NCBI GenBank assembly: GCA_037442925.1
Contig: JBBIPG010000060.1
Span: 1 to 14,182 of the forward strand
DNA: 14,182 bases
Direction: 5' to 3'
Source: Candidatus Fraserbacteria bacterium
GTDB taxonomy: Bacteria; Bipolaricaulota; Bipolaricaulia; RBG-16-55-9
In this document: one piece after another, positions 237-13,932 of the stretch
How positions within the stretch are numbered: the stretch's first letter is position 1
Layout of the letters: each line of letters starts with the position of its first letter
Notes under the pieces: generated by a model
The model's database searches: none
What the model saw: only the letters and a program-made list of their open reading frames with translations
What the model was told of the DNA's origin: nothing
Program-made: the position numbers and the translations under genes

Positions 237-358
237 ATCCAGGCAGCGACCTACTCTTGCGGTCCCTTACAAGACCACTACCATCGGCGCCGGAGGGCTT
301 AACTGCCGGGTTCGGAATGGTTCCGGGTGTTTCCCCTCCGCCATCGGGCCACCTGGAA
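237..358 (-). rRNA. rrf: 5S ribosomal RNA
   Basis: Reverse complement has typical 5S motifs (CCATTCCGAACCCGGCAGTTAAG, GCCGATGGTAGT, GAGTAGGTCGCTGCC) and a terminal helix TCCAGGT/GCCTGGA. Lies about 100 nt downstream of 23S. Confidence 0.96.
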
Positions 359-363
359 TCTCT

Positions 364-425
364 TAGCTTTCAGCCATCAGCGCTCAGCTACAAGCTCTTA
401 GCTGACTGCTGATCGCTGACCGCTA
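364..425. repeat. Inverted array of heptamer repeats (nnTCAGC x3 / GCTGAnn x3) forming a hairpin in the 23S-5S spacer
   Basis: tagc-tttcagc-catcagc-gctcagc-ta, 8-nt loop, ta-gctgact-gctgatc-gctgacc-gcta. Confidence 0.75.
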
Positions 426-428
426 TTC

Positions 429-458
429 GTTTGGTCACTCAAAAGTGAATAGAGTGGA
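429..458 (-). other. 3' arm of the pre-23S processing (RNase III-type) stalk
   Basis: gtttggtcactcaaaagtgaatagagtgga matches the reverse complement of 4406-4435 at 28/30 positions. Confidence 0.85.
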
Positions 459-914
459 TCGCACAAGCGCTCGGTCGATTAGGACCGCTCGGCTCCACTG
501 ATTGCTCAGCTTCCACCTGCGGCCTATCTACCTGCTGTTCTCGCAGGGACCTTACCTCGTCCGTCCCGAAGGACAGACGAGACGGAGACCTTATCTTGGG
601 GTGGGCTTCACGCTTAGATGCCTTCAGCGTTTATCCCGTCCAGACCTAGCTACCCAGCGGTGCCCCTGGCGGGACAACTGGTACACCAGCGGTCCAGCCC
701 CCTCGGTCCTCTCGTACTAGAGGGAGTGCCCCTCAAGTCTCCTACGCCCGCGGCGGATATGGACCGACCTGTCTTGCGACGGTCTAAACCCAGCTCGCGT
801 ACCTCTTTAACCGGCGAACAGACGGACCCTTGGGACCTGCTTCAGCCCCAGGATGAGATGGGCCGACATCGAGGTGCCGAACCTCGCCGTCGATGTGGAC
901 TCTCGGGCGAGACT

Positions 915-945
<31 letters not shown>

Positions 946-1422
946 ATGATCGATGGCCCTTCCACACGGGACCACCGGGTCACTTGGACCTGCTTTCGCA
1001 TCTGCTGGAGATGTCTCTCTCGCAGTGAAGCCGGCTTGTGCCCATGCACTCCACAGCCGATCGCCAACCGGCCTGAGCCGACCTTTGCGCGCCTCCGTTA
1101 CCATTTGGGAGGCGACCGCCCCAGTCAAACTGTCCGCTTAGCACGGTCCTTCCGCCGCTCGTCACGGCGGTCAGTTAGAGCCCTCATGCTCAAAGGGTGG
1201 TATTTCAAGGACGCCTCCACCGAGGCTAGCGCCCCGGCTTCGTTGGCTCCCACCTATCCTACACAATGACCATCAAGACCCAATGCCAAACTCCAGTAAA
1301 GCTCCACGGGGTCTTTCCGTCCTGCCGCGGGTCGTCGGCATTTTCACCGACGCTTCAATTTCGCCGAGTCCCTCGTTAAGACAGCGCTCAAGTCGTTATA
1401 CCATTCATGCGCGTCGGAACTT

Positions 1423-2127
1423 CACGTCGCTCCTCTATTTCTAGAGGCGTAGACTATATCTTCACTACTTCCTTCGCGTACTTCCGTTTGCCCGTGTTGA
1501 TAGTGAAGACCAACTCAATGATCTCTTGGAAGCCTTGCTCCGTCAGGTGTTCGCCGCGACTCATCTTCTTGCAGACGAGTGCGAACTTCTCAAAGTCTTT
1601 CCGCTTGCTCGAGAGCAGAGGATACTTCTCAAAGTGTGGGATCACCTTCTCCACGAGATCACGAACACTACGGACCTCATACTTCAGTGTCTTATCAGAT
1701 CTGTCAGGCCGGATGCTACCGCAGCCAAAGTGCTGCTTATACATCCATAGAATCTCCGCTCGATCATGGTTCTGAGAGACGGAGAAACTGGGGCGAATCT
1801 CCCAGCCAAAAGCATGGCGTCTGCTCTTGCTAATAGCGACGCAAAAGCAACCTTCGCCATCGGCGTATCCTGACAGGTATACTTTGAGGTCCATATTGAC
1901 CTTCACCTTCGTTCACGTTCGGGAAGCAGTGCCGGCGTATTATAGCAGCTTAGGATTTGCTCATATGAGCGTGGCTGCTATCTCGGTCTTTCGACCTCAG
2001 TCGTTACGGGGTCAGGGCTCTTACTGAGCCCGACTTCCCACGGTATTACCCTCTCTTTTGCACGGCTCCTAGTGCCGCAACGAGATTGGGCTTCACCGTT
2101 ATAAGCCAGTATGGGCAATTGTTCATT
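1423..2127 (-). mobile_element. Group I self-splicing intron (IA3-like) at 23S position L1951, 705 nt, with a homing endonuclease gene in the P8 loop
   Basis: Removal restores GTCGGGT|AAGTTCCGAC. P1 GGGU|AAU pairs with AUUGCCC with a U-G wobble at the splice site. P = UAUAACGGUGAA, Q = GGUAAUACCGUG, R = CGUAACGACUG. Two extra stems follow R (GGUC-GAAA-GACC and AUAGCAGC..GCUGCUAU). P8 = CACUGCUUCC/GGAAGUAGUG, S = AAGAUAUAGUCU, P9 = CCUCUA-GAAA-UAGAGG, terminal G at 1423. Confidence 0.94.
1454..1894 (-). CDS. Intron-encoded single-motif LAGLIDADG homing endonuclease (I-CreI-like, about 146 aa; alternative GTG start at 1906)
   Basis: YLSGYADGEGCF motif, then FSVSQ, FGCGSI, VIPHFEKYPLLSSKRKDF and HLT..G..EI..L...IN, all typical of rRNA-intron LAGLIDADG enzymes. 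SD-like GAAGGTGA lies upstream of ATG 1894. Confidence 0.93.
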   Translation of the reverse strand: MDLKVYLSGYADGEGCFCVAISKSRRHAFGWEIRPSFSVSQNHDRAEILWMYKQHFGCGSIRPDRSDKTLKYEVRSVRDLVEKVIPHFEKYPLLSSKRKDFEKFALVCKKMSRGEHLTEQGFQEIIELVFTINTGKRKYAKEVVKI

Positions 2128-2167
2128 ACCCGACTAGGAACTTCGCTACCTTAGGACCGTTATAGTT

Positions 2168-2406
2168 CACCTTGTCCTCATGTCGCCATGAGGGGTGGAC
2201 CATATCTTCACCCTAGCTTGGTATTCAGCCAGGGGCCTGGCGTATGGTCTCTGAGGATTCTGGAATCACAAATCCAGCCTTTCCTGCTGATCGTCCGCAC
2301 CGGACAGTTTATCACTGCAATTGCAGTACTACCGGATACACGGAGTTCCCAGCATATAGCCAGGTTTGTCTTCAGAGATTGCTCCCTGAAGGCCGCAACT
2401 GTTCTT
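2168..2406 (-). mobile_element. ORF-less group I intron (IB-like) at 23S position L1911 in helix 69, 239 nt
   Basis: Removal restores GGCCGT|AACTATAACGGTCC. P1 GGCCGU|AA pairs with UUGCGGCC (U-G at the splice site) and P10 is AGUU/AACU. P2 = UUCAGGGA-GCAA-UCUCUGAA, P = AUAUGCUGGGAA, Q = AUCAGCAGG, R = CUCAGAGACCAUA, S = AAGAUAUGGUCC, P3 = CCUGGC/GCCAGG, P9 = CUCAUG-GCGA-CAUGAG, terminal G at 2168. Confidence 0.93.
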
Positions 2407-4405
2407 ACGGCCGGCCTTCGCTGGGGCTTCAGTTCGGAGCGTGAACTCCTCCCTTTGACCTTCCAGCAGTGGCCAGGTCTCACTCCCTATACATCCTCTT
2501 TCGAGTTGGCAGGGAGCTGTGTTTTTACTAAACAGTCGCCTGAGCCTGCTCTCTGCGACCCGGATTGCTCCGGGCACCCCTTCTTGCGAACGTACGGGGT
2601 CATTTTGCCGAGTTCCTTAACGAGGGTTCTCTCGCCCACCTGAGTATGCTCAACTTGCCTACCTGTGTCAGAGTGCGGTACGGACTCTCCCCAGCTCCGT
2701 AGAGGTTTTTCTCGGCCGCCGATCAGACTTCCTTCGGGCCCGTAGGCCCTCCGCATCACGCCTCGACTTGACCGGGCTCCGGATTTGCCTAGAGCCCGAT
2801 GCCTTGGCGCTTGCACGGGAATCCAATATCCCGCTCGTCCCGACCGGCGGCGTCCCCCCATCGTCAACGCGGGGAAGAGGGGCCGGACTATTAACCGGCT
2901 GTCCATCGGCTACCCCTTCCGGGTTTACCTTAGGGCCGCCTAACCCTGGGTGGATGAGCCTTCCCCAGGAAACCTTGGGCATTCGGTGGCCGAGGTTCTC
3001 ACTCGGCTCGCGCTACTCATTCCGGCATTCTCACTTAAGAGCAGTCCATCTGGCCTTGCGGCTCGACTTCGCTCCGCTCTTAACGCTCCCCTACCACTCG
3101 TCTTATCCGAAGATAAGACGAATCCGCAGCTTCGGCGCCGAGCTTGAGCCCCGTTACATCTTCGGCGCCCCCCCACTCGACCGGTGAGCTATTACGCACT
3201 CTTTAAAGGATGGCTGCTTCTAAGCCAACCTCCCGGCTGTTTAAGTAGAGAGACATCCTTTCACACTTAGCTCGGACTTGGGGGCCTTAACTGGCGGTCT
3301 GGGCCGTTTCCCTCACGACTATGAAGGTTATCCCCCACAGTCTGACTCCCACCGATTCACCGGCGGTATTCGGAGTTTGGTTGGGTTTGGCTTGCGCCGC
3401 ACCCATCCAGTGCTCTACCCCCGCCGACTTCTCAGGTGAGGCTAGTCCTAAAACTATTTCGGGGAGAACCAGCTATTACCAGGGCCCGGCGGGCTTTTCA
3501 CCGCTACCCATAGCTCATCCCAGGATTTTTCCTCATCCACGGGTTCGGGCCTCCCTTCGATGTTACTCGAAGCTCACCCTGGCCATGGGTAGATCGCCTG
3601 GCTTCGGGTCTGTTCCCGGTGACTTGTCGCCCTATTCGGACTCGCTTTCGCTGCGGCTGCGCTGGACGGACCCAGCTTAACCTGGCCACCGAAAACAACT
3701 CGCCGGATCATACTGCAAAAGGCACGCGGTCAGGCCAGCGCCCCTTGACGCTCCCTCCTCCCTTGCGGGATTTAAGAGCGTCACGTAAGACGCCGGGACC
3801 CTCCCACTGCCTGTAGGCAGATGGTTTCAGGCTCTATTTCACTCCCCTTCCGGGGTTCTTTTCACCTTTCCCTCGCGGTACTATATTCACTATCGGTCAG
3901 CTGTGAGTATTTAGCCTTGGAGAGTGGTCTCCCCAGCTTCACGCCGTATCACGGGTACGACGCTACTCAGGTACAGCTCGGGAGAAGAAGACCTTTCGCC
4001 TACGGGACTATCACCCTCTTCGGTCGCCCGTTCCAGTGGCTTTGCCGGCCGTTCGGCTAGACCTTCTCTTTGTAACTCCCAGATGAGCTGCCCTACAACC
4101 CCAGACGAACTTGCGCTCGTCTGGTTTGGGCTCTTCCCGTTTCGCTCGCCGCTACTTAGGGAATCTCAAGAGATTTCTCTTCCTCCGGGTACTGAGATGC
4201 TTCACTTCCCCGGGTTTGCCTCACCCTTCTACTCAGTTCGAAGAGTGATACTCCGCCTTCCGCGGAGTGGGTTGCCCCATTCGGGAATCCCCGGATCAAC
4301 GCCTGCTCGGCGGCTCCCCGAGGCTTATCGCAGCCTACCACGCCCTTCATCGCCTTCAGCTGCCAAGGCATCCACCATCTGCCCGTACTGAGCTTGCGCG
4401 ATTTC

Positions 4406-6430: not shown

Positions 6431-6439
6431 TGTTATAAT
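6431..6439 (+). promoter_or_regulatory. Extended -10 promoter for the prkA operon
   Basis: TGtTATAAT is a perfect extended -10. No good -35. Lies about 30 nt before the first SD-ATG. Confidence 0.6.
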
Positions 6440-6519
6440 TGAGAAGAACGACGGAGAGCGAGGAGGACAGCATGTCAGATCGCGAAGCACGAGACCAACG
6501 GCGAGGAGGTGAGCGAACG

Positions 6520-8577
6520 ATGAATCACGCTGTCCGCGAGATCGCATCGAAGCTCAAGCGAGAGCAAGTTCACGACAAGTACAAGGCCATCCGTTTCGAT
6601 GAGTACCTGGAGATGCTGCCGCAGGATCCGCGACTCGTCCGCAATGCCTATCAGCGGCTCTATGATATGATCATAAGCCACGGCACCCACATCTACAAGA
6701 GGGACGGTAAAGAGATCACACGCTACCGCTTCTTCGATGACCCCTTTGGCAATGGAGAGGATGCCATTTACGGGATCGACGAGGCACTCAAGAATTTGGT
6801 GGATATTTTTGAGGCTGCCGCCAAAGGCCTGGGCCCGGATCGCCGCATCATCCTGCTGCACGGGCCGGTGGCCACGGCCAAATCCACGATCGGAAGGCTA
6901 CTGCGCCGCGGCCTGGAAGAGTACTCGAAGACGGATGAAGGGCGGCTCTACACGTTTGAATGGGACATCAGCCATTTCGACGACGAGCCCTTGGATATCG
7001 TCCCCTGCCCGATCTTCGAAGAACCCTTGCGGCTCATCCCTGAGGTAGAGCGCCGGCAGTTGCTGATCTCCCTCAATCAGATCTTCAAGGAAAACCATCG
7101 AGCGCAGTATGAGCTCGATGTCGAGGGAGACCTCTGCCCCAAGTGCCGCTTCTATTTCAACCGGTTGATGAAACTCTACGACGATGACCTCGAGTCGGTC
7201 CTCAAGCATGTCACGGTCCGTCGGCTCATCATCAGCGAGCAAGACCGCCGCGGAGTTGCCACCTTCGAACCCAAGGACAAGAAGAACCAGGACGAAGAGG
7301 AACTCACCGGTGGGATGAACTGGCGGCTCGTGCAAGTCTACGGCTCGGACTCAGATCCCAGGGCCTTCAACTACGATGGAGAGCTTTGTGTGGCCAACCG
7401 TGGCCTCTTCGATGGCGAAGAGCTCCTCAAACTACAAGAAGAATTTCTGTACGACTTTTTGCACGCGACCCAGGAACACGTGATCAAGCCCAAGAAGAAT
7501 CCACGCATCGGCATCGACACCGTCATCTTGGGAAGGACCAATAACCCCGAATACAAGCGGGTCAAGGCCAATGAGAAGATGGAGGCGTTCAACGATCGCA
7601 CGCGCAAGGTCGATATCCCGTATGTGCTGCGCAAGACCGACGAGAAGAGGATCTATGAGAAATTCTTCCAGGGACCGCGAGTCGGCGGCAAGCACATTGC
7701 CCCCCACACGCTGGATATGGCGGCGCTCTGGGCGATTCTCACCCGACTCGAAGAACCCGGTGGCGATGTGACCCTCTTGCAGAAGGCCAAGCTCTATGAC
7801 GGAGAAGCCATCCCCAATCGCACGGTCGATCTGCAGAAGCTGCAAGAAGAGGTGCGCGAAGAGGGATTCTTTGGTGTCAGCCCGCGCTACGTCATCGACA
7901 TGATCAGCAAAGCCCTCGTCAATGACAAAGAGGGGTGCATCAATCCATATCGCGTGCTGGCCATGCTCGAGGACAATTTACGGCATCACGCGGCCATCGA
8001 TGAGAACAGGCTGGATGAGTATAAAGAGCTGATCGAGATCGTGCGGGAAGAACTCTCCGGGATCGCGCAAGAGGAAGTGCGACGGGTCATCTCGCATGAT
8101 CCTGAGGAGCTGCAGGAAGTGGGACAAAAATACTTGGATCACGTGTTGGCATATCTCAACGATGAGAAAGTGGAAGACAAGTACACGGGCGAGGAGAGGG
8201 AGCCCGACGAAGAGTTCATGCGAGCGATCGAGAAGCAGATTGGCATTACCGAGGCTCAGAAGGACGATTTCCGGCAGGAGATCGCCAACTGGATCAGCGA
8301 GCGTGCCCGCAAGGGGGAGTCATTCAACCCCGAGGACAACGACCGACTCCGACGGGCCATTGAGAAGAAGCTCTGGGAGGACAAGAAACATAACATCAAC
8401 TTCTCCGCCATGGTCTCGGACAAATCGACGGATCCCGAGCACAAGCGGCGCAAGGGAGAGTGGGTCGAGCGCCTCAAGAGCGAGTTCGGCTACTGCGATG
8501 TCTGCGCGGAGAACGTGATCGATCACGCCGGAGCCGAAGTCGCACGCGATGAGCTCCAGAGACAAGAGCGGGTGTAA
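6520..8577 (+). CDS. prkA: PrkA/YeaG family AAA+ ATPase / serine protein kinase (685 aa; alternative start 6472, 701 aa)
   Basis: RNAYQRLYDMI, P-loop LHGPVATAKST, KNQD..ELTG, YGSDSDPRAFNYDGELCVANRG, IAPHTL, G.SPRYV and PDEEFMRAIE. Followed by yeaH and spoVR. SD GGAGGTGA precedes ATG 6520. Confidence 0.95.
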   Translation: MNHAVREIASKLKREQVHDKYKAIRFDEYLEMLPQDPRLVRNAYQRLYDMIISHGTHIYKRDGKEITRYRFFDDPFGNGEDAIYGIDEALKNLVDIFEAAAKGLGPDRRIILLHGPVATAKSTIGRLLRRGLEEYSKTDEGRLYTFEWDISHFDDEPLDIVPCPIFEEPLRLIPEVERRQLLISLNQIFKENHRAQYELDVEGDLCPKCRFYFNRLMKLYDDDLESVLKHVTVRRLIISEQDRRGVATFEPKDKKNQDEEELTGGMNWRLVQVYGSDSDPRAFNYDGELCVANRGLFDGEELLKLQEEFLYDFLHATQEHVIKPKKNPRIGIDTVILGRTNNPEYKRVKANEKMEAFNDRTRKVDIPYVLRKTDEKRIYEKFFQGPRVGGKHIAPHTLDMAALWAILTRLEEPGGDVTLLQKAKLYDGEAIPNRTVDLQKLQEEVREEGFFGVSPRYVIDMISKALVNDKEGCINPYRVLAMLEDNLRHHAAIDENRLDEYKELIEIVREELSGIAQEEVRRVISHDPEELQEVGQKYLDHVLAYLNDEKVEDKYTGEEREPDEEFMRAIEKQIGITEAQKDDFRQEIANWISERARKGESFNPEDNDRLRRAIEKKLWEDKKHNINFSAMVSDKSTDPEHKRRKGEWVERLKSEFGYCDVCAENVIDHAGAEVARDELQRQERV

Positions 8578-8600
8578 ACGCCCTTTCGAAGGCGGTGATG

Positions 8601-8630
8601 AGAAGGGAGCGGACTCTTCCGCTCCCTTCT
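8601..8630 (+). promoter_or_regulatory. Perfect 13-bp intercistronic hairpin between prkA and yeaH
   Basis: agaagggagcgga-ctct-tccgctcccttct. No U-tract on the + strand. Ends 7 nt before the yeaH ATG. Confidence 0.7.
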
Positions 8631-8637
8631 GCAAAAG

Positions 8638-9783
8638 ATGCCCAAGAGGATTCGAAAAGACCTGGAGCGCTACAAGCGCATCGTCCGCGGGGAGATTCGT
8701 AAGAACCTCAAGGATCTCATTGAGAGTGGGGAGATCGTCGGCCAACGAGGTAAAGACATCGTCAAGATACCCATCAAGAGCATTCGCATCCCTGAATTTC
8801 GCTACGACCCGCGCGATGCCGGGGGCATCGGTTCTGGCGAGGGCGAGTTGGGTCAACCCATCCGGCTCGATGAGGATGGGGATTTTTGGGGACGGCCTGG
8901 CCAAGGCACAGGCATCCATCTCCCTGAAGTCGAGATCGAGCTGCGAGAGCTTGCGGAGATCTTGGGGGAAGAGCTGGAGCTACCCCGGATTCAACCCAAA
9001 GGGGAGCGCCGCTGGGTCCAGGGAGGGGAGGATTATACCGATGTTTCTGTGGTCGGGCCAGAGACGCTGCTCATGAAGCGACGGGCCTACCGAGAGGGTC
9101 TCAAGCGTCAGTTATTGCTCACCGAACTAGGGAAGGATGGTGCGGTAGAAGGGATGCCCCCGGCTTTGCGTCCTCCACTGCTCGTCACCCCCATCCGGGA
9201 AGACAAGCGGTATCTGCATAGCGAGCCAGAGCCGGAGCCCCAGACCAATGCCGTCATCCTCTTCATGCGCGATGCCTCCGGCTCGATGAGCGGAGAGAAG
9301 ACGGAGATCATTCGCCAAGAGAATTACTGGATTGACATCTGGCTGCGCACTCACTACGACAATGTGGAACGGGTGTACATCCTGCACGATTACGAGGCGC
9401 AAGAGGTCGATGAAAAAGAGTTTTATGAGCTATCCACCGGTGGAGGCACCCGTATCTCCAGTGCGTATGAGCTGTGCGGGAAGATCATCGAGCGTCGCTA
9501 CTCGCCGGAAGAGTGGAACATCTACCCCTTCCACTTCTCCGACGGGGAGAACTGGATTGGAGATACAGAGAACTTCTGTGTGCCGCTGCTCCAGGATGAA
9601 TTGCTCCCGCGCTGCAACATCTTCTGCTATGGGCAAGTGACGCTGGGACGCCGCTCCGCCGGCTTGCATCTTGTCAAGCTCGAGGAGCATCTCGGACAAG
9701 ATGAGCGATGGGTGAGTTCCATCATTTCGGGCCGAGAAGACATCTTGCGTTCCATTAAGGACTTTTTGGGGAAAGGGCGCTAG
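8638..9783 (+). CDS. yeaH: YeaH/YhbH (DUF444) family protein with vWA/MIDAS domain
   Basis: KIPIKSIRIPEFRY, Gly-rich linker, EELELPRIQPKG, NAVILFMRDASGSM, GGTRISSAY, WNIYPFHFSDGENW. Located between prkA and spoVR. Confidence 0.93.
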   Translation: MPKRIRKDLERYKRIVRGEIRKNLKDLIESGEIVGQRGKDIVKIPIKSIRIPEFRYDPRDAGGIGSGEGELGQPIRLDEDGDFWGRPGQGTGIHLPEVEIELRELAEILGEELELPRIQPKGERRWVQGGEDYTDVSVVGPETLLMKRRAYREGLKRQLLLTELGKDGAVEGMPPALRPPLLVTPIREDKRYLHSEPEPEPQTNAVILFMRDASGSMSGEKTEIIRQENYWIDIWLRTHYDNVERVYILHDYEAQEVDEKEFYELSTGGGTRISSAYELCGKIIERRYSPEEWNIYPFHFSDGENWIGDTENFCVPLLQDELLPRCNIFCYGQVTLGRRSAGLHLVKLEEHLGQDERWVSSIISGREDILRSIKDFLGKGR

Positions 9784-9785
9784 GG

Positions 9786-11429
9786 ATGAACCCACTCAGC
9801 ATACAGGAGCTGGAAGGCCTTCGAGGCGAGGCGCGTCGACTGGCCGAAGAGGCCGGCCTGGATCCGTGGGAAGTCACCTTTGGCGTGGTGGATTACGATA
9901 GAATCAATGAACTGTCGGCGTATGACGGGTTCCCTCTGCGCTACCCGCACTGGCAGTTTGGCATGTCGTATGATTATTTCCGCAAGAGGGGTGCCTATTC
10001 CGGTTGGTGGACCTACGAACTTGTGCTCAATACCCGGCCAGCCCTGGCGTATCTGCGAGCGAGCAACACGGTCGTCGAGACGAAGGGCGTGATGGTCCAT
10101 GTCTACGCCCACGTCGATTTCTTCCGGCACAATCGTTGGTTCAGCAAGACGAACCGGGACATGATTCGGCTGATGGAGAACCATGCGACGCGGGTCGAGC
10201 GCTACATGAATCAATATGGTGTGGAGAAAGTCGAGTCGTTCCTCGATAAGGTCTTAAGTATTCAGTACAACATGGACCCGCACGCTCCCTTCATCAAGCG
10301 TCGCTGGCAGGCCAAGCGCAGTTCCAAGGACGAAGACGAGGGGAATGGGCTGGTCGAAGCCAGGCGGATCCCCGTCAAGCGCGATTACATGGAGCGTTTC
10401 ATCAACCCACCGGAATGGGTCGAGAAGCGACGCGCTCGCATTCGCGCAGAGCTAGAAGAGAAGAAGCTACGAGAGGCCACGGAATTGGAGCGCCCTCAGA
10501 AGGATCTTCTGCAGTTTCTCATGAAGCACGGTCGGCTCGAGGATTGGCAGAAGGACCTCATCGCCTTGGTCCGCGAGGAGTCGTACTACTTCGTCCCGCA
10601 GATCCAGACGAAGGTGATGAACGAAGGATGGGCCAGCTACTGGGAGTCTAAGATCATGGCCGAGTTTGCCGGTCCCAATGAGTTCTTAGATCACGCCGAT
10701 ATGATGAGCAAGGTGCTGGGAGGCAGTGCGCTCAACCCCTATCGTCTGGGCAAGCTCATCTGGGGAGACATCAAGGAACGCTGGGACAAGGGTAGATTCG
10801 GTCGCGAGTGGGAACTGTGCAAGGACAAAGAGAAGAAAGAGAAGTGGGATACCAGAGCTGGCTTGGGGATGGAAAAGATCTTCGAGGTCCGGCGCAACTA
10901 CAACGACGTCACGTTCATCGATGAATTCTTCACGGAAGACCTCTGCGAGAGACTCAATCTCTTTGCCTACGAGTACATTCCGGAGACGGGCGCGTATCAC
11001 ATCACATCGAGGAGCTTTGAAGATGTAAAAAAGAAGCTGCTGCTGCGGCATACCAACTTGGGCAAGCCGACCATAAAAGTCGTGACGGGAAACTACGACA
11101 ACAAGGGCGAGCTGCTCCTCATTCACGAGTGGAACGGCATTGGACTCGACGGGGAAGATGCCAAACAAGTGCTCAAGAACATTCACGCGATGTGGGGACG
11201 GCCCGTGAACTTAAAGACGATTATCCTGCGCAGGGTCCGCGATCCAGATCCGACGCGCAATCGCATCCATCCGGAGCGACCGCTGACGGCGGTGGTCGAA
11301 GAGCAAGGGGTGTTGCTTCGCTACGATGGGGAGACCTTCCGGGAACTGGCGCTCAAGCCTGAGGAAGTGGCCGACATCCGCGTCGATGATGTGAACTACC
11401 ATACCATTCCCGAGGAATGGATCGGCTAA
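9786..11429 (+). CDS. spoVR: SpoVR/YcgB family protein
   Basis: GFPLRYPHWQFG, YELVLN, HVYAHVDFFRHN, VREESYYFVPQIQTKVMNEGWASYW, LNPYRLG, WGRPV. Confidence 0.95.
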   Translation: MNPLSIQELEGLRGEARRLAEEAGLDPWEVTFGVVDYDRINELSAYDGFPLRYPHWQFGMSYDYFRKRGAYSGWWTYELVLNTRPALAYLRASNTVVETKGVMVHVYAHVDFFRHNRWFSKTNRDMIRLMENHATRVERYMNQYGVEKVESFLDKVLSIQYNMDPHAPFIKRRWQAKRSSKDEDEGNGLVEARRIPVKRDYMERFINPPEWVEKRRARIRAELEEKKLREATELERPQKDLLQFLMKHGRLEDWQKDLIALVREESYYFVPQIQTKVMNEGWASYWESKIMAEFAGPNEFLDHADMMSKVLGGSALNPYRLGKLIWGDIKERWDKGRFGREWELCKDKEKKEKWDTRAGLGMEKIFEVRRNYNDVTFIDEFFTEDLCERLNLFAYEYIPETGAYHITSRSFEDVKKKLLLRHTNLGKPTIKVVTGNYDNKGELLLIHEWNGIGLDGEDAKQVLKNIHAMWGRPVNLKTIILRRVRDPDPTRNRIHPERPLTAVVEEQGVLLRYDGETFRELALKPEEVADIRVDDVNYHTIPEEWIG

Positions 11430-11438
11430 AAAACGGCG

Positions 11439-11467
11439 TTGAAAAACGGGAACCACTCGATTAACAT
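11439..11467 (+). promoter_or_regulatory. Putative sigma70 promoter for phoH-HD genes
   Basis: TTGAAA (11439-11444), 17-nt spacer, TAACAT (11462-11467). Confidence 0.5.
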
Positions 11468-11504
11468 CTAGGCCGGTGTTGTTGCGCACCAGGCATGACA
11501 TAGA

Positions 11505-12485
11505 GTGGGGGATTCATCACTGAGTAAGCGAACGAAAGTACAGCGGGAGATCGCCTTGAAGGACGTCACGGAGGCGACGGCGCTGTTAGGTCCATTCAAT
11601 CGAAATCTCAATGCCATTCGCGAGTGGTTTCCCGTCCAGATTCGAACTCGGGGAGATCAGCTCTTCCTCGAGGGCGACGAAAAGGAAGTTGCCCAAGCAG
11701 CTCAACTCTTCGAAAAGTTAAGAGAACTCATCGAAGAAGGGCACATTCCAGAGATCAGCGACGTGGAGTATCTAGCGGAGCAGATCCGTGGCGAACAGGA
11801 TGTCAGTTCCGTTCTGGTAGATGTCGTTCAACATACCCACTGGGGAGAGGCAATCCGACCGAAAACCAAGGGGCAATCTCGCTATGTTCAAGCGATGGAG
11901 AAGCAGGAGATCGTCTTCGCCATTGGACCCTCGGGAACGGGCAAGACGTATCTGGCCGTCGCCATGGCCGTGAATTTCTTAAAGAAGGGCAAGGTCAATC
12001 GACTCATCCTGACTCGGCCGGCTGTCGAGGCCGGAGAAGAACTGGGCTTCTTGCCGGGAGATATCCAAGCCAAAGTCAATCCCTATCTGCGCCCGCTCTA
12101 CGATGCCCTCTATGACATGCTCCCTGCCGATGAGGTGAAGCGCTATCTTGACACGGGCCGAATCGAGATTGCACCGCTGGCTTTCATGCGAGGGCGGACA
12201 CTCAACAACAGCTTTATTATTCTGGACGAAGCGCAGAACACCACCTCCGGTCAGATGAAGATGTTTCTCACTCGCCTGGGGCTGCACTCCCGCGCCGTGA
12301 TCACAGGGGACGTCACCCAGATTGACCTCGAAAGAGGGGTCTCCGGCCTAGTGGCCATTCAGCGCATCCTGGCAGGGATCGACGAGATCGCTTTCCTTTA
12401 TCTCGACAAAAGCGATGTGGTGCGCCACCCTTTAGTCAAGAGGATCATCGATGCGTATGAGAAGATGGAGCAAGCGAAAGAGTGA
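11505..12485 (+). CDS. phoH: PhoH family ATPase (YbeZ/PhoL type with N-terminal KH-like region)
   Basis: GPSGTGKTYLAVA, ILTRPAVEAGEELGFLPGD, PYLRPLYDAL, APLAFMRGRTL, LDEAQN, MFLTRLG, GDVTQIDL, DVVRHPLV. Start uncertain (GTG 11505 or CTG 11520). Confidence 0.96.
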   Translation: MGDSSLSKRTKVQREIALKDVTEATALLGPFNRNLNAIREWFPVQIRTRGDQLFLEGDEKEVAQAAQLFEKLRELIEEGHIPEISDVEYLAEQIRGEQDVSSVLVDVVQHTHWGEAIRPKTKGQSRYVQAMEKQEIVFAIGPSGTGKTYLAVAMAVNFLKKGKVNRLILTRPAVEAGEELGFLPGDIQAKVNPYLRPLYDALYDMLPADEVKRYLDTGRIEIAPLAFMRGRTLNNSFIILDEAQNTTSGQMKMFLTRLGLHSRAVITGDVTQIDLERGVSGLVAIQRILAGIDEIAFLYLDKSDVVRHPLVKRIIDAYEKMEQAKE

Positions 12486-13932
12486 ACTGAAGAGCGCGCT
12501 GAAGCGTCAGGTCCCGAAGGTGCGGGTATGGCTGTATGCCGTCGTGACGGCGCTGGCCTTGGCAGGCTTAGCGGCGTTTCGGATCAACCTCTCAGCGTCT
12601 CCCTGGGTAAAGTGGGCTGCCAGTTGGCAACAGCTGGTGGGTGATTTTCTTGTCGTCGCCTTGTTGGTGATGCTTTGGGCGGTCTATCTGCAGCTCTGTT
12701 ATTCAGAACTGCTGCGTACCGCCCGGATGCGGGTGTTTCTGGTAGGGGTCGTCGTCTCGGTGGCCCTGCTGGGGCGATTCACGGATCTATTGGCCCCGTA
12801 CTTGGTGCCGGAGCAAATGGGGGCATATCTCGTGCCGGTCGCCTTCGGGGCTGGCTTAGTGACGATCTTCACCGGCGCGGAGGTGGGCTTTGCCGTAACG
12901 ATATTATTGAGCCTCTGGGTGGGGTTGGGCAATGCAGTCCATCCGATGACGGCAATGCTCGCGGCATTCGGCAGTGGCAGTGTAGCTGTGCTCCGCTGCG
13001 CTCGCTTACGCAAATTCTCGGATCTGCCTCTTACGGGGTTGGAGATCGGCGTCGTCGGTGTGATCTTGCAGGGGGGGGCTGCGCTCTTCTATCAGGGGAG
13101 CGAGGCGGTCAATGGCGTGAGTCTCCTCTGGTCGGGGGTCAACGGTCTGATGAGCGTACTGCTCATCTTTGGGGGGCTTCCTCTGGCTGAATTCATCACT
13201 CAGAAGACGAGCCCCTTGGGCCTGGTAGAGCTTCTCAATCCCTCCCATCCCCTGTTGGTCATGCTCCGAGAGCAGGCGTCGGGGACGTATCATCATAGTT
13301 TTAACGTGGCGGATCTGGCCGAGAACGCGGCACAGGCCATCGGAGCGGACCCCCTGTTGGCCAAAGTCGGCGGCTACTATCACGACATTGGGAAAATCAA
13401 GCGCCCGCAGTTCTTTGCGGAGAACCAACAAAACGGTCACAACCCTCACGATGAGATCTCGCCCAGCATGAGCAAGGTCATTCTCACCTCTCATATTAAA
13501 GAGGGTGTCGAGCTGGCTCAGGAATATGGCCTCAGGGAAGACGTCATTCAGTTTATCCGGCAACATCATGGCACCTCCGTGATGCGGTATTTCTATCTAA
13601 AAGCTCTTCGTGAAGGGAAGGCCAGCCCCTCGTCCATGGATGATTATCGCTATGTTGCAGAATTGCCCCGCACTCGGGAGACGGCCATCGTGATGCTGGC
13701 GGATGGAGTGGAAGCAGCCTCGCACAACGCGAAGGATGCGGCGCAGCTCGAGCAGATCATCACAGAGGCCATGAGTGGCCCGCTCAAGGACGAGCAACTG
13801 AAAGAAAGTCCTCTCACCTTACGCGATCTCGAAAAGATCAAACAGGCGTTCATCGCAACGCTACGGGCGATGAGGCATGATCGTATCCGTTCCTATCCCA
13901 AGGACTCGGAGATCAAGAGCGCGCCTCGGTAA
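12451..13932 (+). CDS. Membrane-bound HD-family phosphohydrolase (7TM-HD, HDIG; PgpH/YqfF-like candidate cyclic dinucleotide phosphodiesterase)
   Basis: About 7-8 hydrophobic segments, then LVELLNPSHPLL, GTYHHS..VA.LAE, YYHDIGK, FFAENQ..NPHD, HHGT and MLADGVEAAS. Occupies the usual position after phoH. Confidence 0.9.
   Translation: MRMRRWSKRKSELKSALKRQVPKVRVWLYAVVTALALAGLAAFRINLSASPWVKWAASWQQLVGDFLVVALLVMLWAVYLQLCYSELLRTARMRVFLVGVVVSVALLGRFTDLLAPYLVPEQMGAYLVPVAFGAGLVTIFTGAEVGFAVTILLSLWVGLGNAVHPMTAMLAAFGSGSVAVLRCARLRKFSDLPLTGLEIGVVGVILQGGAALFYQGSEAVNGVSLLWSGVNGLMSVLLIFGGLPLAEFITQKTSPLGLVELLNPSHPLLVMLREQASGTYHHSFNVADLAENAAQAIGADPLLAKVGGYYHDIGKIKRPQFFAENQQNGHNPHDEISPSMSKVILTSHIKEGVELAQEYGLREDVIQFIRQHHGTSVMRYFYLKALREGKASPSSMDDYRYVAELPRTRETAIVMLADGVEAASHNAKDAAQLEQIITEAMSGPLKDEQLKESPLTLRDLEKIKQAFIATLRAMRHDRIRSYPKDSEIKSAPR

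Follow-up and report, generated by a model that had tools for sequence, protein, structure and literature searches.

The 23S rRNA gene of this Candidatus Fraserbacteria genome is interrupted within helix 69 (H69), which raises the question of whether the interrupting segment is a functional group I intron at L1911 and, if so, how unusual that site is among bacteria and how the intron came to occupy it. According to the accessible text of two studies, H69 forms bridge B2a and carries pseudouridines at positions 1911, 1915 and 1917 (PMC3973299; PMC2602781), with the H69-H71 region being a known intron hotspot (PMC2602781). The window, by which is meant the whole stretch of 14,182 bases analysed, opens at the start of the 14,182-base contig C60 of the host genome (G000), an assembly of 2.07 Mb that is 94% complete. 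The H69 3′-strand motif occurs once in the whole host genome and no uninterrupted 1911 junction was found in it, while rRNA genes are often collapsed in metagenome-assembled genomes and an intron-free 23S copy may still be present in the host.

Membership of the group I introns is indicated by a covariance match over the P3-P9 core, an exon U facing a guide G in P1, a terminal G, and a P7 with G-C pair and bulged A that forms a pseudoknot with P3, all of which are present. The element had been described in the original prediction as compact. The Rfam model RF00028 matches window positions 2416-2176 on the minus strand over its full length (model positions 1-253) at 73.9 bits against a gathering score of 50. 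Since the dinucleotide AA is common to the start of the intron and the 3′ exon, excision of 239 nt restores the same exon product in three registers, only one of which (2406-2168) combines an exon U with an intron-terminal G, the very boundary that had been singled out; a further 24 nearby U...G pairs were listed and none restores the exon. The site had been named by E. coli numbering, and the same position was obtained when the exons were aligned globally with K-12 rrlH, with window 2412 corresponding to G1906, 2407 to U1911, 2167 to A1912, 2155 to C1924 and 2128 to U1951, such that the insertion lies exactly between U1911 and A1912 in H69 (Table 1).

Table 1. Features of the host rRNA locus and of the L1911 intron, in window coordinates.
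Feature	Position	Strand	Remarks
Host 23S rRNA gene	459..4399	-	RF02541, 2495 bits; bacterial; only assembled copy; two group I introns
5S gene	356-238	-	
L1911 group I intron	2168..2406	-	239 nt, no ORF, terminal G at 2168
5′ exon end, H69 5′ strand (E. coli G1906-U1911)	2407..2412	-	Pairs with the internal guide in P1
Internal guide sequence	2391..2400	-	P1 3′ strand 2398-2391; P10 strand 2400-2397 with exon 2167-2164
P2 hairpin	2371..2390	-	8 bp, GNRA loop; all 8 pairs change on both sides
P3	2364-2359 with 2241-2236	-	Fold, hand-set structure and covariation
P4	2354-2349 with 2290-2285	-	P5/P5a extension also within 2236..2364
P6	2284-2282 with 2257-2255	-	Loop houses the LAGLIDADG ORF in relatives
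P7, guanosine-binding helix	2251, bulged A, 2249-2245 with 2202-2197	-	Within 2197..2251
P8	2234-2227 with 2218-2211	-	
P9.0	2196-2194 with 2171-2169	-	Positions the terminal G
P9 hairpin	2193-2176	-	GCGA loop; single hairpin at the 3′ end
Middle exon	2128..2167	-	40 nt, E. coli 1912-1951: H69 loop and 3′ strand, H70/H71 region
Second group I intron, known site L1951	1423..2127	-	705 nt
Single-motif LAGLIDADG ORF of the L1951 intron	1454..1906	-	150 aa; PF00961, E 3e-25

The structure was set by a computed fold together with a hand-set structure, derived from the host intron sequence, and the intron with its flanks folds with z = -5.26, none of 200 shuffles folding as well. In the fold P1 consists of eight pairs, six between the exon (2412-2407, including the U.G wobble) and the guide and two that extend it, all against 2398-2391, while P10 has four pairs and reuses the U bases of the two P1 extension pairs; both the 8-bp P1 with its wobble and the 4-bp P10 that had been proposed were therefore recovered. 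From its likeness to L1923 and L1931 introns, which are classed as IB4 in the accessible part of PMC6125680, the intron may be assigned to subgroup IB4.

Covariation was examined in a MAFFT alignment of 26 ORF-less members of the L1911 family of 345 nt or less. In these 95.1% of cells are paired and both partners have changed in 34 of the 63 pairs, neither value being reached in any of 500 shuffles and slid controls giving 37-45% paired, with the caveats that paired-cell counts are inflated by a structure derived from the host sequence, that kin can beat shuffles and that the values are not probabilities. At the 5′ splice site the P1 U.G wobble is present in all 26 short members, and in P7 the G-C pairs are invariant in all 26 with 96.8% of cells paired. 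In five of the 67 listed introns the H69 pair 1909/1921 of the respective host is swapped from C-G to G-C with the guide base changing along, the other 62 keeping the usual state. At the 3′ splice site complete pairing of P9.0 is seen in 66 of 86 distinct listed 3′ ends, compared to a shuffle mean of 27.6 and maximum of 40, and to one and two of 86 in the slid registers. By motif match GNRA-type loops are found in L2 and L9 of all 67 listed L1911 introns, and P10 spans two to four pairs in L1911 introns, reaching four in 42 of the 67 listed. Judged from these alignments, covariation fixes both splice sites of the L1911 introns.

The P7 helix had been read as bearing a compensatory change that implied selection for activity. 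The strands, GACCA (2249-2245) and UGGUC (2202-2198), and their coordinates were correct, but the change is not specific to the copy: UGGUC forms the 3′ strand in 53 of the 67 listed L1911 introns (with GACCA as partner in nine and GGCCA in 40) and is found again in L1917, L1923 and many L1931 introns. Among the L1911 introns one P7 pair does show covariation, with C-G in 18 and U-A in seven. On this comparison the P7 variant is an inherited clade trait and not special to the host copy.

Assembly was checked against sequencing runs. Contigs of run X1, the probable source run, cover window 1391-2621 without differences, and a contig of run X2, from a different study, spans window 1200-2622, both introns included, and differs at 82 letters and by 13 gaps, belonging to a relative that carries the same short L1911 form. 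As this contig is continuous through both introns mis-assembly is unlikely. The wider proposal, that the segment was wrongly assembled, is an L1917 intron assigned to the wrong place, or is dead and non-splicing, a relic or intervening sequence, draws on the facts that rRNA regions of metagenome-assembled genomes can be chimeric and that L1911 and L1917 endonucleases are close relatives; it is highly improbable in view of the independent X2 contig, the at least 66 further distinct complete introns that share both junctions, the guide and P9.0 covariation specific to 1911, and the L1917 introns, whose guide differs and which lack P2.

What can be read directly from the sequence is the complete P1-P9 core, together with both junctions and membership of the family. 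We consider it very likely that the element is an ORF-less group I intron after U1911, one expected to self-splice and to have arrived by horizontal homing of an endonuclease-carrying ancestor. Following the standard group I mechanism, the guide would capture the 5′ strand of H69 through P1 and the U1911.G wobble, with free guanosine bound in P7 cutting after U1911; P9.0 would then bring the terminal G into the same pocket as the guanosine, and P10 would align A1912-U1915 for the exons to be joined. It had been claimed that splicing must precede H69 folding and modification, and in the modelled structure this holds: because the entire H69 5′ strand would be taken up by P1 and the loop by P10, H69 could form only after ligation, with bridge B2a and pseudouridylation at 1911, 1915 and 1917 following only after splicing. 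The predicted stability of P1 is -12.5 kcal/mol vs. -6.4 kcal/mol for H69. The same logic is equally valid for the known L1917 and L1923 introns and is not unique to L1911. No clean joint across 2167/2407 was present among the matches listed from contigs of runs X1, X2, X3, X7, X10 and X17 (six of 21); short X10 contigs that run from the 5′ exon into an intron-free 3′ exon were not taken as splicing evidence, intron-free relatives being abundant. With regard to the modification of H69, the host genome encodes two RluA/RluD-subfamily proteins, while the RlmH family (PF02590) had no match in the 94% complete genome and methylation at 1915 may be absent from the host.

Splicing of a real intron could also depend on protein, either a chaperone of the host or the LAGLIDADG protein of the neighbouring L1951 intron serving in trans as a maturase. 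A maturase-like activity is described in the accessible text of PMC3984707 for the LAGLIDADG protein of a Thermotoga neapolitana 23S intron, and the LAGLIDADG ORF in the second intron of the host 23S gene is intact, while the L1911 intron keeps all core and peripheral elements with their GNRA-type loops, and ORF-less L1911 introns exist in genes that have no intron at 1931, 1943 or 1951 (e.g., L033, L036 and L042), making a need for such help unlikely. The host L1951 protein groups with another L1951 protein in the tree and is therefore not an L1911-type enzyme. Window position 2135 (minus strand), equivalent to E. coli 1944, is A in the host and U in E. coli and in a relative of the same genus, with A in one of 69 other locus matches; A1944 pairs with U in the extended P1 of the L1951 intron, to which it may be linked.

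The distribution of the L1911 introns was established by scanning 185,579 GTDB species genomes for a G directly before an intact 1912-1934 exon, a pattern blind to genes that have additional introns at 1917, 1923 or 1931, with the loci sorted by motif parsing and alignment. The 17 matches yielded 11 L1911 introns: eight in Actinomycetota, whose carriers include Ca. Hakubella thermalkaliphila and Ca. Solincola, two in Omnitrophota and one in Anaerolineae (Chloroflexota). In five archaeal matches (L032, L040, L041, L044 and L045; Halobacteria and Methanomassiliicoccaceae) G replaces U1911 with no insert, and one match (L031), a deletion or misjoin, was dropped. A metagenome scan gave at least 120 matches, those listed comprising 62 complete L1911 introns and 46 with only the 3′ end in view, with 12 listed matches dropped as having no intron 3′ end; 102 ‘L1911’ matches from a looser count, which included false long matches, were not used. 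Apparent L1911 relatives in the host phylum (30 loci examined) proved to be L1917, L1923 or L1931 introns.

Including the host copy there are at least 74 complete L1911 introns, at least 67 of them distinct, ranging from 197 to 740 nt. Of the 67 listed, 26 are 345 nt or less, nine are intermediate and 32 exceed 700 nt. A LAGLIDADG frame of at least 110 aa from the motif lies in P6 in 31 of the 66 listed relatives, a few being frameshifted, several introns of intermediate length carry LAGLIDADG remnants, and no LAGLIDADG motif was found in the 239-nt host copy. The length classes and ORF remnants read as a decay series, and by the same comparison the host intron is an ORF-less member of a mobile L1911 family and not an isolated oddity. 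Within this family L036 (Omnitrophota), L053, L060, L103, L116 and L146 have a P1-loop insertion of 40-55 nt and a GAUCA/UGAUC P7, five of them grouping with L036, while L129 and L135 are very small (197-198 nt), have no P5 extension and are good candidates for a minimal ribozyme. Among metagenome loci L048-L167, 71 of 90 distinct listed L1911 3′ ends have an exon break at 1931, 20 nt on, which is apparently a second intron; one subset of these co-occurring L1931 introns closely resembles the L1911 introns in core and P9.

The site had been predicted to be rare in bacteria and the genome counts agree, with one of 184 genomes of the host phylum carrying an L1911 intron vs. 83 with an uninterrupted junction, among them all eight genomes of the same family, and six of 301 Acidimicrobiia (five without the seed genome) carrying one vs. 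129 intact. The remaining genomes matched neither pattern, their 23S gene probably being unassembled. No intact second 23S copy was found in seven carriers (the host and six Acidimicrobiia), such that removal of the intron would be essential if no copy went unassembled.

The L1911 endonucleases belong to the PF00961 family and have LAGLIDADG relatives of solved structure, with a search of NCBIfam returning no family for them. Two quick trees both group the L1911 with the L1917 endonucleases (99%; 95% SH-aLRT), apart from those of 1923, 1931 and 1951. The median identity of L1911-L1917 pairs is 44%, against 29-35% to other sites (29% to L1923 and 34% to L1931), and the L1911 protein of locus L099 is 73-77% identical to the L1917-intron proteins of eight host-phylum genomes, which the trees place beside it (98%). 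An AU test on a quick tree of 35 subsampled rows, from which six frameshifted or truncated rows had been dropped, does not reject a single clade of L1911 endonucleases (p = 0.183). As to its history, the intron would derive from an ancestor of the lineage common to the L1917 introns that encoded a LAGLIDADG protein in P6 and homed into the host lineage, the gene being deleted later. Resolution of the core tree is poor (115 columns, with some blocks extracted wrongly and 25 rows left out) and hence no donor can be named.

Vertical inheritance from an early ancestor or reverse splicing, with the intron never endonuclease-dependent in the host lineage, would fit a host copy that has no ORF remnant, the similarly short form in the X2 relative and the mostly ORF-less nearest neighbours with which the host intron forms a group in the core tree (96% SH-aLRT). 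Set against this, the uninterrupted relatives, the whole of the host's own family included, mean that vertical descent would need many losses, and the same core group holds L099 with its full LAGLIDADG ORF, leaving either route quite improbable beside homing and later loss of the gene.

The closest known systems are the L1917 introns (C9, Thermotoga subterranea, PMC1995217; CPR 1917, PMC11270868), which on the accessible parts of those papers also lie in H69, 6 nt away. They resemble the L1911 introns in having near-identical P3-P7 core motifs, and in both the ORF, when present, begins in P6 and often runs into core elements. The L1911 guide differs in pairing with G1906-U1911 and not with the H69 loop, and the covarying 8-bp P2 of the L1911 intron has no counterpart in the L1917 introns examined here, nor in the L1917 and L1931 introns of the accessible part of PMC1995217. 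The L1911 3′ end is a single P9 hairpin, unlike that of L1917, and the host copy in addition has no ORF; with its insertion after U1911 and its P2, the host intron falls outside the L1917 family. The IB4-type L1923 and L1931 introns of bacteria, archaea and organelles (PMC6125680 and PMC1995217, as far as their accessible text extends) share the core motifs and the P7 variant, with one L1931 subset having the short P9 end seen in L1911 (BLASTN summed bits 166 vs. 200 for L1911 relatives), but they differ in site and guide and their endonucleases are more distant.

The protein relationships suggest one homing target with two insertion points for the L1911 and L1917 endonucleases, the simplest reading being a single predicted enzyme lineage aimed at H69 and used by two ribozymes with different guides. 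It is conceivable, if somewhat doubtful, that the same enzyme cuts intact H69 and that the two ribozymes, 6 nt apart, are mutually exclusive competitors. The collection scans leave out double occupants by design, and a more permissive pattern found no L1917 intron in the seven carriers, which are too few to show exclusion. If one target does serve two ribozymes, this would be a traceable change of site, by guide rewiring or endonuclease capture, with homing kept.

L1911 had been called atypical for bacteria, and it is missing from the bacterial, CPR and archaeal lists consulted. Table 1 of PMC1995217 gives L1917, L1931, L1951 and L2593 for bacteria; the accessible text and supplement of PMC11270868 give 1917, 1931, 1952, 2593, 2604 and 2657 for CPR, with no mention of ‘1911’; and the accessible part of Table 1 of PMC6125680 gives the archaeal LSU sites 1923, 1931, 2500 and 2593, with no ‘1911’ in its accessible text. 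No bacterial L1911 group I intron was found in the open literature, in the accessible portions of PMC3984707, PMC8395846, PMC4853749 and PMC11835236 among others, subscription papers and intron databases being outside the scope of the search, and the database of PMC11835236 and the CRW tables may list L1911. From the available text, the ‘position 1911’ intron of PMC13190283 is an unrelated group II intron of an algal mitochondrion (family rnl-2080), and the target of I-MG11 (PMC13748971) is not H69.

The host element is thus, on the sequence evidence, a real, well-formed and probably active ORF-less group I intron at a bacterial site that is apparently rare and undescribed. L1911 may also be the site of a nuclear intron in the myxomycete Fuligo septica; nuclear group I introns are a different lineage. 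The literature searched gave no support either way for the myxomycete site. The element class, the mechanism and the H69-H71 neighbourhood were known already, such that the surprise is moderate, what is apparently new being the bacterial insertion site with its multi-phylum family. It adds a group I site inside a universally conserved intersubunit-bridge helix of bacterial ribosomes. Short natural L1911 variants (197-250 nt) lend themselves readily to in vitro tests, and a common L1911/L1917 endonuclease lineage makes the old question of how introns move to new sites directly testable.

In many Bipolaricaulota 23S genes (loci L002-L027) an intron occupies L1917, L1923 or L1931, some of these introns having an endonuclease gene and others none. 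Upstream of the 23S-5S pair of the host (window 238-4399) stand rsfS and an LCP-family gene but no 16S gene, as in unlinked rRNA genes, the 16S motifs lying on another contig (C32). A nearby PhoH protein is 88% identical to a Candidatus Fraserbacteria RBG_16_55 protein, with the other organism-named matches being to Acetothermia/Bipolaricaulota, which assigns the host to Bipolaricaulota. On the plus strand, window 6439-13932 holds a prkA-DUF444 (yeaH)-spoVR cluster, after which come phoH and the gene of a 7TM-HD hydrolase, an ordinary conserved arrangement.
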